A DNA stretch of 64,000 nt. Origin: an uncultured Gemmatimonadales bacterium. GTDB lineage: Bacteria; Gemmatimonadota; Gemmatimonadetes; Gemmatimonadales; GWC2-71-9. The position numbers were made by a program, and so were the translations under genes. How positions within the stretch are numbered: the stretch's first letter is position 1; every line of letters starts with the position of its first letter. Below the pieces are notes generated by a model that worked only from the letters and a program-made list of their open reading frames with translations, did no database searches and was not told where the DNA came from. The stretch is from assembly GCA_963828735.1 (NCBI GenBank), contig CAWHFW010000002.1:384001-448000 (forward strand), written 5' to 3'. Below are positions 12,564 to 16,854 of the stretch, piece after piece.

Positions 12564-12592
12564 TTGACAACCCTTTCGGCCGTCACTAGTCT
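12564..12592 (+). promoter_or_regulatory. Sigma-70 promoter of met operon leader
   Basis: TTGACA (12564-12569), N17, TAGTCT (12587-12592); predicted TSS near 12599, just before the riboswitch. Confidence 0.75.
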
Positions 12593-12598
12593 CACGCT

Positions 12599-12679
12599 CA
12601 CGGCGGCCGACTTAAGGCCACTTGCTCCCGCCGGTGCCTCGGATGGTCCGGGACACGAACAAACAAGCTAAAGCGCCGG
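12599..12679 (+). ncRNA. SAM-II-like riboswitch (long-loop variant)
   Basis: P1 CGGCGG (12601-06)/CCGCCG (12628-33); CCGACUU loop; CUUG pairing with CAAG; 3' AAACAAGCUAAAG signature; inserted hairpin 12634-12656; upstream of metY/metX. Confidence 0.72.
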
Positions 12680-12746
12680 ATGCACGCCCTCCGAGCGCAC
12701 CTGGCCGGGGGGCGTCGTGTTTGGCCCCCAGACACACGAGAATTCC

Positions 12747-12845
12747 ATGCGGCCTCGCGCGAGCTGCTGTCGAATGATGCCCTACTGCCCCTGTCCGGGG
12801 TGGACGGCGTCATCGGCGCATGCGCGTGGAAGCGGCGGGGTCTAA
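12747..12845 (+). CDS. Putative 32-aa Cys/Met-rich leader peptide MRPRASCCRMMPYCPCPGWTASSAHARGSGGV
   Basis: Hand translation; 4 Cys and 2 Met within a 10-codon core; stop lies 20 nt before a terminator; upstream of Met biosynthesis genes. Confidence 0.65.
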   Translation: MRPRASCCRMMPYCPCPGWTASSAHARGSGGV

Positions 12846-12865
12846 CCTCCGCAACCCGGCACCCC

Positions 12866-12910
12866 GAGGCCCGGACCACTCACTGAGCGGTCCGGGCCTC
12901 ATCGTTTTCC
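12866..12910 (+). terminator. Intrinsic terminator (attenuator) ahead of metY
   Basis: GAGGCCCGGACC (12866-77)/GGTCCGGGCCTC (12889-900) 12-bp stem followed by ATCGTTTTCC. Confidence 0.75.
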
Positions 12911-12929
12911 TACACTCGAGGAGCGCAGC

Positions 12930-14258
12930 ATGTCTCTCCAGCCCGAAACGCTGGCCATTCACGCCGGGCAGGTGCCGGACCCGGCCACCAACGCGCGCGC
13001 CGTGCCGATCTACGCCACGACGAGCTACGTGTTCAACGACACGCAGCACGCCGCGGACCTCTTCGGCCTCCGAGTGTTCGGCAACATCTACAGCCGCATC
13101 ATGAACCCAACGAGCGACGTGTTCGAGAAGCGCATCGCGGAGCTCGAAGGCGGGATCGCGGCGCTCGCGCTGGCGAGCGGGCAGGCGGCGGAGACGTTGA
13201 CCGTGCTTAATCTCTCCCGCGCGGGCGACAACCTGGTCTCGTCGCAGAACCTGTACGGCGGCACCTACAACCTGTTCGCCTACACGCTCCCCAAGTGGGG
13301 CATCACGACGAAGTTCGTGGACATTCACGACCTGGACCAGGTCCGCGCCGCGATCGACGGCGGCACGCGCCTCCTCTTCGTCGAGACGATCGGGAATCCG
13401 CGGCTCGATGTGCCAGACTTCGAGGCGCTGGCCGAGATCGCGCACGCGGCGGGGATTCCCCTCGTCGTGGACAACACGTTCGGCGCGGCCACCCTCAGCC
13501 GTCCGATCGAGCACGGCGCGGACATCATCATCCATTCGGCGACCAAGTGGATCGGGGGGCACGGGACGGCGATCGGCGGCGTCGTGGTAGACGCGGGCAA
13601 GTTCGACTGGGCCAGTGACAAGGCGCGCGCGCGGTTCCCCGAGTTCAGCTCACCCGACCCGAGCTATCACGGCCTGGTCTATACGGAGGCGTTCGGCCCC
13701 GCCGCATTCATCATCAAGATGCGAGTGCAGCTGCTCCGCGATCTGGGGCCTGCGCTGTCGCCGTTCAGCTCGTTCCTGTTCCTGCAGGGTCTCGAGACGC
13801 TGCCGCTCCGCATCCAGCGACACTCGGCGAGCGCTCTCACCATCGCCCAGTGGCTCGCCAAGGATTCCCGCGTCGAGTGGGTGTCGTATCCCGGCCTCGA
13901 GTCGCATCCCGAGCACCGGAATGCCGCCAGGTACCTGACCGGCGGGTTCGGCGGCGTGCTCACGTTCGGCGTCAAGGGTGGATCGGCGGCAGCAAAGTCG
14001 CTCATCGACCGGGTGAAGCTCTTCTCGCTCCTGGCCAACGTGGGCGACGCGAAGTCGCTCATCATCCACCCCGCGTCGACCACCCACGAGCAGCTGACGC
14101 CGGAGCAGCAGCGTGCTACCGGCACGACACCCGAGCTGGTCCGCCTGTCGGTCGGGCTCGAGGATGTGCGAGACCTCATCGACGACCTGAATCAGGCGCT
14201 GGGTGAGGCGGCGGCTACGGACGACCGCCGGGCCGTGGCGACGAGCGCCGCCGGATGA
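12930..14258 (+). CDS. metY: O-acetylhomoserine aminocarboxypropyltransferase (sulfhydrylase)
   Basis: [27 protein letters not shown] (PLP Lys), ANVGDAKSL. Confidence 0.93.
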
Positions 14259-15325
14259 CGTCGCCGCTCGTGCTGAAGTTCGGCGGTGATGCCCTCGCGA
14301 CACCCGAGCGCATCGCCGCCGCCGCTCGCCGGGTGGTGCTCCGCCGGCCCGGCCGCCCACTCGTCGTCGTTGCGAGCGCGCGACGTGGCGTGACAGACCG
14401 CCTGTTCGGCCTCGTGGAGCAGGTGCGGGACGCGAGCGGCCACGCGCGCCCGCTCAACCGGGCGGCGCTCGCGGCCGTGGACCGTGCGGTCACGAGCGGC
14501 GAGATCGTCGCCGCGTCCCTGCTGGCCCTGGCGCTCGAGCAACTGGGCGTGCCCGCCGTGGTACTCGACGCTCGGGAGTCGGGGATTCTCAGCGACGGCA
14601 CCCCGGGTGAGGCCACCGTAGTAGGCGTGCGACCCGCGCGGGTCGAGCGCCTGATCGGCCGCAACGTCGTTCCGGTGGTCACGGGATTCCAGGGCTGGCA
14701 CCGCGGTCGACTTACCGCGCTCGGTCGCGGCGGATCAGACATCACGGCGGTGGCGCTCGCAGGGGCGCTGGGAGCGGCCGAGTGCGAGCTGGTGAAGGAC
14801 CCGGGCGCGCTGCACACTGCCGACCCCAAGCTCGTGCCCGGGGCCCGGCCGATTCCGCGCGCGAGCCACCGCTTCGTCACGGACCTCTCCGGCGCCGGTG
14901 CCCGCGTCATTCACCACGCCGCCGCCGCCAGCGCCGAGCGGGAAGGGCGCAGTCTCCGATTCACGTCGCTTGTCGGCGACGGCGAGCCCGCCACGATCGT
15001 CACGCCAGGTGAGCCGGCGCCCGGCGCGCACGCGGTTGTCCTCGTTGCAGGCCGCCTGGGGCTCGCGCCCGCGGACGATCATCCGGCGGAGGTCGCGACG
15101 GTTACGGTCGTCTCCGACGGCGGTCCGACTCCCCGGGACGAGCTGTTCGCGACCGTGGCGCGCACCGGGGTGAGGGTTCTTCGGGCGGGATCGGGCTCAC
15201 ATGGCTTCAGCTTCCTGGTGCCCGACGCCGAAAGCGGCATATTGCTGCGGGCCCTGCACACGACGCTCGACGTCGCCATCGCCGCGGGCGACGAGGGACG
15301 GAGGATGTATGCCGGTCATCGATGA
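14255..15325 (+). CDS. Aspartokinase-like protein with reduced regulatory domain
   Basis: [28 protein letters not shown]; overlaps metY stop. Confidence 0.8.
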
Positions 15326-15823
15326 GCTGGTTCACGCCAACGAGGCGTATGCCAGCACGTTTCGCCACGGCGAGCTGGCGCTCCCTCCGAGGCGCTACAT
15401 CGCCATTCTCACTGCATGGACGCCCGAATCCTTCCGTCGCGAGCCTTCGGCCTCGAGGAAGGCGACGCGCACGTCATCCGGAACGCCGGCGGGCGCGCCC
15501 GCGACGCCCTGCGCTCTCTCGTCATCTCTCAGCGTTTGCTCGGAACGCGTGAGGTCGCCATCATCCACCATACGGACTGCGGCATGCTGACGTTCAGCAA
15601 TCGGGATCTCCGGGAGAAAGTCCGCGAGGACCTGGACCAGGACACGGGCGAGTTCGACTTTCTACCGTTCAAGGACCTGGATGAGAGCGTGCGCGAGGAT
15701 ATCGAGTTCCTGCTCGCCACCCAGCTTCTCGACCCGGCGACGATCATCCGAGGATTCGTTTATGACGTCCGGACGGGACGGGCGCGCGAAGTGACACTCG
15801 AGACGGCGGACCACGCCCGGTGA
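15309..15823 (+). CDS. Beta-class carbonic anhydrase, clade D (Rv1284-like); one base missing near 15413
   Basis: [11 protein letters not shown]...AILT then a frame change to CMDAR; IRNAGG, ISQRLLGTRE, HHTDCGML, GFVYDV. Confidence 0.85.
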
Positions 15824-16854
15824 CCTTGATCGGCGAAGGCCCAGCCACGACGGAGCTGGCCCTCGGCACGTTCGTCGGGGCCGACGGTCAACCACTCTCC
15901 GGCCTGCGGCTCCGATACCGGGTCGTGGGTAATCTCGACGCTGCGCGCGAGAACGGATGGATCCTGGTGTTCCACGCGCTCACGGGCAGCGCGGATGCCG
16001 AGGCCTGGTGGGGCCCTCTCATCGGCCCCGGTCGGGCGCTGGACACGTCACGGCACGCGCTCGTGTCGGCGAATCTGCTGGGGAGCTGCTACGGCTCGAC
16101 GGGACCTCAGGAGTGGGCGACCGAGCACGACGAGCCGTTTCCCGATCTCACCCCCGCCGATCTCGCACTCGCGCACGTGCCACTCCTGGAACACCTCGGC
16201 GTCGAGCGACTGGCGTTGGCCACGGGCGGCTCGCTGGGCGGCATGGTGGCACTTGAGTGGGGACGGCTGTCGAGCGTGCCGCTCGACCGGCTCGTGGTCT
16301 TCGCGGCCCCGGCGGCCACGTCGGCGCAGGCCATCGCGTGGAACACGGTCCAGCGCATGGCGATCGAGGCCGACCCCGCCTGGCGTCGCGGACGCTACCT
16401 CCCCGGCCACGGACCCACGGCGGGACTGGCCGCGGCGCGCGCGCTGGCGATGATCACCTATCGATCGGGGGTCGAATTCGACGCCCGCTTCGGGCGTATG
16501 TCCTCACGCACCGCGGGCAGATTTGACGTGGACCACTACCTCAGGCGGCAAGGGGACAAACTGGTGGCCCGGTTCGACGCGGCGAGCTACATCGCGCTCA
16601 TGCGCGCGATGGACCTGCACGACCTGGGAGACCTCGAGGCGGCCGCGCGGGCAACCGCCGCGCGCGTGAAGACGGTGGTCGGAGTGGGGGTGGATACCGA
16701 TCTGCTGTATTTACCGGGGGAAGTGCGGGCCTGGACGGACGCATACCGCGCGGCCGGCATGGACGCGCGGTATCGCGAAATCCGTTCGGCGTCGGGTCAC
16801 GACGCCTTCCTCATCGAGTGGGATCAGGTCGAGGGGATCCTCCGCGAGGCCTAG
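15820..16854 (+). CDS. metX: Homoserine O-acetyltransferase
   Basis: HALTG, NLLGSCYGSTGP, GGSLGGM, GHDAFL; GTG overlaps carbonic anhydrase stop. Confidence 0.9.
   Translation: MTLIGEGPATTELALGTFVGADGQPLSGLRLRYRVVGNLDAARENGWILVFHALTGSADAEAWWGPLIGPGRALDTSRHALVSANLLGSCYGSTGPQEWATEHDEPFPDLTPADLALAHVPLLEHLGVERLALATGGSLGGMVALEWGRLSSVPLDRLVVFAAPAATSAQAIAWNTVQRMAIEADPAWRRGRYLPGHGPTAGLAAARALAMITYRSGVEFDARFGRMSSRTAGRFDVDHYLRRQGDKLVARFDAASYIALMRAMDLHDLGDLEAAARATAARVKTVVGVGVDTDLLYLPGEVRAWTDAYRAAGMDARYREIRSASGHDAFLIEWDQVEGILREA

Follow-up and report, generated by a model that had tools for sequence, protein, structure and literature searches.

A 64,000-nt window of a Gemmatimonadales genome (4.78 Mb, 7 contigs) contains a methionine (met) operon with the gene order metY-aspartokinase-CA-metX, where CA encodes a beta-carbonic anhydrase of clade D. 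The operon is flanked by yajQ and a sigma-70-type gene (annotation by eye), and its leader presents, in order, a promoter-like site, an aptamer of the SAM-II type (SAM, S-adenosylmethionine), a hairpin, an open reading frame (ORF) with clustered Cys and Met codons, and a second hairpin. We consider it on balance probable that the clade-D CA of this family is a sulfur-scavenging hydrolase, induced by cysteine shortage and releasing H2S from carbonyl sulfide (COS) or a related one-carbon sulfur compound, and that the frameshifted copy in the window is inactive. The elements of the locus are as follows.

12564..12592, plus strand: sigma-70-type promoter-like site (TTGACA, 17 nt, TAGTCT), from reading the sequence
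12599..12682, plus strand: SAM-II riboswitch variant, an H-type pseudoknot with an extra loop-3 hairpin (our own model, R1)
12684..12722, plus strand: first terminator-like hairpin with a weak U-tail, the predicted riboswitch expression platform (RNAfold)
12747..12845, plus strand: Cys/Met leader ORF, 32 codons long, in which 4 Cys and 2 internal Met codons cluster (ORF reading)
12866..12910, plus strand: second terminator-like hairpin (12866-12900) with a T-rich tail, the predicted attenuator (folding)
12930..14258, plus strand: metY, O-acetylhomoserine sulfhydrylase (TIGR01326, 656.8 bits, exceeding the cut-off of 495)
14255..15325, plus strand: aspartokinase, C-terminal part divergent (TIGR00657, 183.6, below the cut-off of 208.7)
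15309..15823, plus strand: clade-D CA gene, similar to COS hydrolases (COSases) (PF00484, above cut-off)
15820..16854, plus strand: metX, homoserine O-acetyltransferase (TIGR01392 is the best match, 313.9, below the cut-off of 500)

Starts and stops overlap throughout the operon, and the ORF coordinates bear out the original prediction on this point: metY and aspartokinase share ATGA, aspartokinase and CA overlap by 17 nt, and CA and metX share GTGA. Aspartokinase is a variable member, missing from many related operons. Short contigs from RNA runs of near relatives (runs containing 7-13% of the words) span the leader-metY and CA-metX junctions; as they cannot prove a single transcript, they were not used.

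By sequence, the CA belongs to clade D, as originally proposed, and is of the Cab type. The zinc motifs of intact Gemmatimonadales orthologues (HxxC in 61/61, CxDxR in 60/61) and the nearest solved structures agree with this placement. The best PDB match of an intact orthologue is CafC of Aspergillus fumigatus (6JQC, E 2e-61), and the leading matches (6JQC, 3LAS, 5ZTP, 1YLK, 3VQJ, 3TEN and 1G5C) are clade-D enzymes of about 165-170 aa.

Linkage of the CA to the met genes was surveyed in a draw of 150 genomes of the family and in 102 other genomes of the window's genus; many of these genomes are incomplete, and a missing match in the counts below does not prove that a gene is absent. In the family draw, 23 genomes carry metX at 60% identity or above, and CA lies directly before metX in 13 of them, spanning eight genera, so that the predicted association with metY and metX holds well beyond the window. 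Within the genus, CA was found in 55 of 102 genomes (one short fragment excluded), metX in 51 and sulfite reductase in 68. CA adjoins metX in 25 of the 51 metX-bearing genomes, and three more carry CA elsewhere. A quick tree (128 rows) finds the met-operon state in all outer genera, with the CA-alone states nested within. An extension of the arrangement beyond Gemmatimonadales was rejected, no met gene standing beside CA in 74 loci of other phyla.

The proposal that the operon lies behind a sulfur-responsive leader is supported by the anatomy of that leader, with its Cys/Met ORF, hairpin and SAM-II-type RNA. Where metY is the first gene, a leader with at least two Cys codons was found at 27/28 loci and the SAM-II motif at 23/28, and the leader peptides together hold 109 Cys and 73 Met in 916 codons. 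As a genomic background, an upstream short ORF with at least three Cys occurs at only 166 of 3027 gene-like starts. In the 37 loci that were folded, the hairpin between leader and first gene has a helix of 7-15 bp followed by 3-8 T in the next 10 nt, the tails of some having only 3-4 T. Two hallmarks of an attenuator are thus present: a short ORF that is conserved and enriched in the codons to be sensed, and an intrinsic terminator-like hairpin between that ORF and the first gene.

Upstream of the leader ORF, similar -35 and -10 boxes lie at the matching place in many relatives; a promoter scanner run on the window placed the site at 12564..12592 below its threshold. The adjoining RNA was modelled from 21 leader copies (R1). 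R1 gives one strong match in this genome and matches in 25 of 151 genomes of the phylum, where they precede metY, aspartokinase, metF (confirmed for locus L248) and metH-like genes (by eye); the three weakest matches (L249, L252, L253) do not stand before genes of the SAM/methionine pathway. Insert-free R1 homologues score 45.2, 39.8 and 37.9 against RF00521 (SAM_alpha), for which the gathering threshold is 36. Rfam gave no SAM-II match on the window or on L078, and the best score of an insert-bearing form, 12.8 bits at L082, falls below gathering. For the pseudoknot with its added hairpin, 95% of alignment cells are paired and 10 of 19 pairs show double changes (two in P1, three in P2b and five in the added hairpin), a level reached in 0 of 500 shuffles; the alignment had been fitted to P1, and pair counts of this kind are inflated by kinship among the sequences. 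The SAM-II core is invariant in 21 close sequences and hence gives no covariation signal. The window aptamer differs from the family consensus in two places, a U of loop 1 and a pair of P2b, and for this reason may bind SAM less well. The first hairpin and its T-run are also present in relatives. Insert-bearing SAM-II variants were also seen directly before aspartokinase and metH-like genes at L236, L246 and L247, where no leader peptide is present.

CA also occurs as the first gene of its locus, at 28 loci of the genus: 23 between yajQ and the sigma gene, and five elsewhere. By script, 22 of the 28 have a leader with at least two Cys, and 19 after L213, L221 and L222 are dropped as likely chance ORFs. 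These leaders contain 67 Cys and 8 Met in 646 codons, and none of the 28 loci has the SAM-II motif; the CA-first leader thus usually retains Cys and drops Met. The five copies outside the yajQ locus carry the complete module, and locus L277 of another genus (g23) is a further CA-first case with Cys leader and terminator. In addition, the family has a second lineage of clade-D CA, with its own Cys leader and terminator at four of five readable loci. A single clade for both lineages was rejected (approximately unbiased test, p-AU 0.008; the groups had been defined from an earlier tree). At one second-lineage locus (L092), CA is followed by an SBP56/methanethiol-oxidase-like gene, below the model cut-off. 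Within this genome, the same design of promoter, Cys ORF and hairpin also precedes the cysH-sulfite reductase operon and a sulfurtransferase, serving as an internal control; it was not seen upstream of cysK.

Given the Cys-only CA-first leaders, the separate leader of the second lineage and the cysH and sulfurtransferase leaders, the CA is likely a general sulfur-starvation gene rather than a homocysteine-specific one. The original prediction of a COS-to-H2S-to-homocysteine route therefore stands in part. The genomic link to metY and metX is real; the exclusive tie to homocysteine is contradicted by those Cys-only leaders and by the 27 of 55 CA-bearing genus genomes that lack a metX match.

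In the mechanism that we propose, high SAM would terminate transcription at the first hairpin and fast translation through the Cys/Met codons would terminate it at the second; as each hairpin would stop transcription on its own signal, the operon would be transcribed only if neither signal is high. Because the Cys-rich leader likely activates the CA in sulfur shortage, the enzyme itself likely frees sulfide from COS or a similar compound, supplying a shared pool for MetY and for cysteine synthase. Only by analogy with the fungal and Thiobacillus homologues do we infer the reaction, COS + H2O -> CO2 + H2S. Escherichia coli carrying a Trichoderma COSase grew about 10 times better with COS as sole sulfur source, and 34S of COS was traced into SAM, the role of the activity in heterotrophs being termed unknown (PMC10880591). 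CafC has low CO2 activity and 54.6% identity to the Trichoderma COSase (PMC12035519). A bolder formulation, that both clade-D CA lineages under cysteine-sensing attenuation are dedicated COS/CS2-to-sulfide enzymes and that the met operon is wired to a two-input switch of SAM-II and Cys/Met transfer RNA, stands in our estimate at an even chance; if it holds, these loci would be genetic evidence for a regulated bacterial route of sulfur assimilation from a gas.

The window's own copy is a different matter. A one-base frame break lies at about 15411-15415, at the codon of the first zinc-ligand Cys, where both halves share one frame in relatives. CxDxR and HxxC are both encoded, but the frameshift separates the first Cys from the start codon, so this genome has no intact reading frame for the clade-D CA. 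Rescue by an internal start was rejected, since the ATG at 15416 falls after that Cys and there is no earlier in-frame start. Four DNA runs were compared at the break. Logan contigs from two studies reproduce it with 0 differences and 0 gaps (X5, 15100-15794; X12, 15100-15564), X1 and X9 had no coverage of the site, and the source sample could be among the matching runs. The exact matches from two studies rule out an assembly error. The original prediction had held that reads confirming the frameshift as a true lesion would count against it, and for this strain contigs of two studies do confirm it; the frameshift being genuine, the copy is probably dead. Against six intact relatives, the C-terminal half shows nonsynonymous divergence (dN) of 0.06-0.10 and synonymous divergence (dS) of 1.1-2.9. 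As dN is low relative to dS, the lesion is likely recent, and the gene likely a recent pseudogene. The window lineage, in which cysH and sulfite reductase are present, would thus recently have lost CA function. A decayed, leaderless CA remnant was also seen between yajQ and the sigma gene at L091 (G066:C27).

Several observations weigh against a sulfur-scavenging, cysteine-controlled CA. On the enzyme side, no sequence feature distinguishes COSases from active clade-D CAs, and the CO2 activity of Rv1284 is high (PMC12035519). Regarding sulfur metabolism, the genus shows no mutual exclusion of CA and sulfite reductase (35 genomes with both, 20 with CA only, 33 with reductase only, 14 with neither; Fisher p 0.53, kin not being independent); an anticorrelation seen in a hand-picked set vanished genus-wide and was rejected (p 0.53; 0.21 among metX carriers). 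For 11/13 met operons with CA in outer genera, the genome gave no sulfite reductase match (7/9 at 90% completeness or above), and the same holds for 7/10 metX carriers of that draw without an adjacent CA. No thiocyanate hydrolase of this genome scored above cut-off; the sole candidate (194 vs a cut-off of 291) was rejected as it fits nitrile hydratase. With regard to the leader, antiterminator duplex energies lie barely below those of shuffles (mean z -0.7, -0.3), and a credible leader is missing from nine of the 28 CA-first loci. All 19 loci of genus g1 that combine a Cys leader with CA in first place sit in one subclade of the quick tree with 100% support and hence reflect few events; these leaders may in part be passive retention of the old promoter. 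Beyond the family, 15 clade-D CA loci from five further families of this phylum show neither a Cys leader (0/15) nor a met gene. Outside the phylum, a Cys-cluster ORF was found at 6/74 CA loci, not above the controls of 5.3% and 9.7%, and Cys leaders as a general feature of clade-D CAs in other phyla were rejected on this count.

The supply of substrate raises a further difficulty. A cell contains tens of mM of sulfur. Taking from two papers (PMC12035519, PMC10880591) COS at 500 parts per trillion by volume (pptv), a solubility of 0.018 M/atm and a kcat/Km near 2e5 per M per s, and assuming an enzyme concentration of 10 uM, we calculate about 2 uM sulfide a day from air-level COS. Air alone cannot supply the cell, this yield being far below its content; atmospheric COS is too dilute, and therefore a local source richer in COS, or a different substrate, would be needed. 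This arithmetic favours an alternative in which the CA has a sulfur role and its main substrate is CS2, mono- or dithiocarbonate, thiocarbamate or an intracellular product of a sulfurtransferase or methanethiol oxidase, in place of free COS. Genes for rhodanese, SBP56, SufB/NifU and cysteine dioxygenase adjoin CA in 6/74 loci outside the phylum, a count for which all queries but rhodanese were drawn from those same loci; rhodanese was matched four times in 84 loci, each time no more than 70 nt from CA and on the CA strand (Actinomycetota, Thermomicrobiota), which also speaks for the preferred explanation. COSases do turn over CS2, though slowly, and the characterised close homologues favour COS over CS2 (PMC12035519). 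Nor was a source of such a substrate identified in this genome. We regard this alternative as unlikely, if worth keeping in view. Clusters of the form rhodanese-CA-(NifU or SufB)-(SBP56) were observed at L112, L135, L163, L168 and L103 in Thermomicrobiota and Actinomycetota.

A more doubtful alternative is that the protein is an ordinary CO2/bicarbonate CA on an inherited promoter at the yajQ-rpoD locus, the CA-first Cys leader being a relic of deleted met genes. The nesting of CA-alone states inside the met-operon state, the CA-first loci without a credible leader, the absence of leaders from other families, and the frequent loss of the gene, broken in the window, all fit such a relic. Yet in the CA-first leaders Met codons and the SAM-II motif have gone, while Cys codons, start and stop codons and the hairpin persist. 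The module is also complete in five copies away from this locus, and the second CA lineage has a Cys leader and hairpin of another kind. Moreover, this genome already has a second, canonical beta-CA. Finally, the CA might hydrate CO2 and be induced when sulfur is scarce, so that bicarbonate or protons become available to sulfate import or to pH homeostasis. CA partnerships with SulP-type transporters are known, and sulfite reductase is found in 35 of 55 CA-bearing genus genomes. We nevertheless hold this to be very improbable, since no SulP family was found among 57 flanking ORFs scanned and the seven of nine near-complete family genomes with CA in the met operon and no sulfite reductase match would have little use for sulfate.

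We therefore retain a cysteine-controlled, sulfide-releasing CA as the preferred explanation. This genome holds cysH, a cysD-like gene, sulfite reductase, cysK, metH-type domains and homoserine dehydrogenase. A clade-D CA in a cysteine-starvation regulon offers a direct test system: orthologues with an unbroken frame, leaders short enough for reporter fusions, and losses of the gene in nature. If the explanation is correct, COS uptake by soil bacteria would depend on their sulfur status. The tandem switch of SAM-II and leader peptide, and a SAM-II form invisible to Rfam, are useful in themselves.

Further features were noted during the survey. A second metY-like gene, about 52% identical and apparently split into two frames, lies at G000:C4:272157-273962 (minus strand). 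Before cysH-sulfite reductase, L256 (G000:C5, about 1754100-1754340, minus strand) has a promoter-like site, an ORF that is almost leaderless and contains three Cys codons in a row, and a terminator hairpin; at L255:150-1300 (G000:C5:1692450-1693600, plus strand), a Cys/Met leader ORF and hairpin precede a two-domain sulfurtransferase. Downstream of a promoter-like site, G000:C6:75412-75676 (plus strand) holds a 37-codon ORF with 9 Cys, metallothionein-like by eye. Just before clade-D CAs of Ca. Dormiibacterota and Actinomycetota, Cys-cluster short ORFs are conserved pairwise (L126 with L160, L108 with L116); those of L126 and L160 end alike across phyla without a terminator, for which reason translational control would suit them. 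In family f10 (L257, L259-L262, L264, L265, L267), a common motif of ~20 nt resembling GTCGAT...GA...TGA[AC]C was seen by eye ahead of clade-D CAs, between promoter and ribosome site, and may be an operator. A small signal recognition particle (SRP) RNA (Rfam RF00169) lies at 59954-60051 of the window, minus strand.

Literature searches that left most subscription titles outside coverage yielded no account of this arrangement, whether they addressed the operon, a CA in sulfur-starvation regulons, Rv1284 with cysD, COS as a sulfur source of bacteria, Cys/Met leader peptides with metY, or SAM-II or attenuators in Gemmatimonadota. The closest known relatives of each part can nonetheless be compared. 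The aptamer resembles the SAM-II families (RF00521, RF01726) in P1, the UUGC and GCUAAA elements, the pseudoknot pairing and its placement before met and aspartokinase genes, and differs in its loop-3 hairpin, longer P2b, sub-gathering score and tandem leader peptide. The leader peptides share a Cys-cluster short ORF with the polycysteine leaderless small-ORF (sORF) attenuators of mycobacteria (bioRxiv 10.1101/834739) and with uORFC-8-2 of cysS (PMC8632094). The mycobacterial sORFs often begin a few bases past the -10 box and before sulfur genes, including sulfurtransferases, as here; the available text of bioRxiv 10.1101/834739 does not name a carbonic anhydrase. Control in mycobacteria is translational, whereas the Gemmatimonadales leaders add a terminator-like hairpin, Met codons before metY and SAM-II upstream.

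Among characterised enzymes, the COS hydrolase of Thiobacillus thioparus (3VQJ, E 1.5e-28) and the CS2 hydrolase of Acidianus (3TEN, E 9e-23) share clade D and the zinc motif. Both are longer, more distant and serve energy metabolism, whereas the context of the Gemmatimonadales CA is assimilatory; at 171 aa, it is too short for the extra loop region of the Thiobacillus enzyme (219 aa). Rv1284 of Mycobacterium tuberculosis (1YLK, E 2e-39), also of clade D, is a weaker match than CafC. The fungal enzymes ThCOSase, GtCOSase and CafC are, like the window's CA family, short clade-D CAs of the Cab type, and the position of CafC Leu25 is Leu or Met in 48 of 61 Gemmatimonadales CAs. Unlike them, the Gemmatimonadales CA is bacterial, operon-encoded and downstream of a predicted cysteine attenuator, and its COS activity is a prediction. 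While the COSase activity of Trichoderma harzianum is reported to be constitutive, that of the Gemmatimonadales CA would be under predicted cysteine control.

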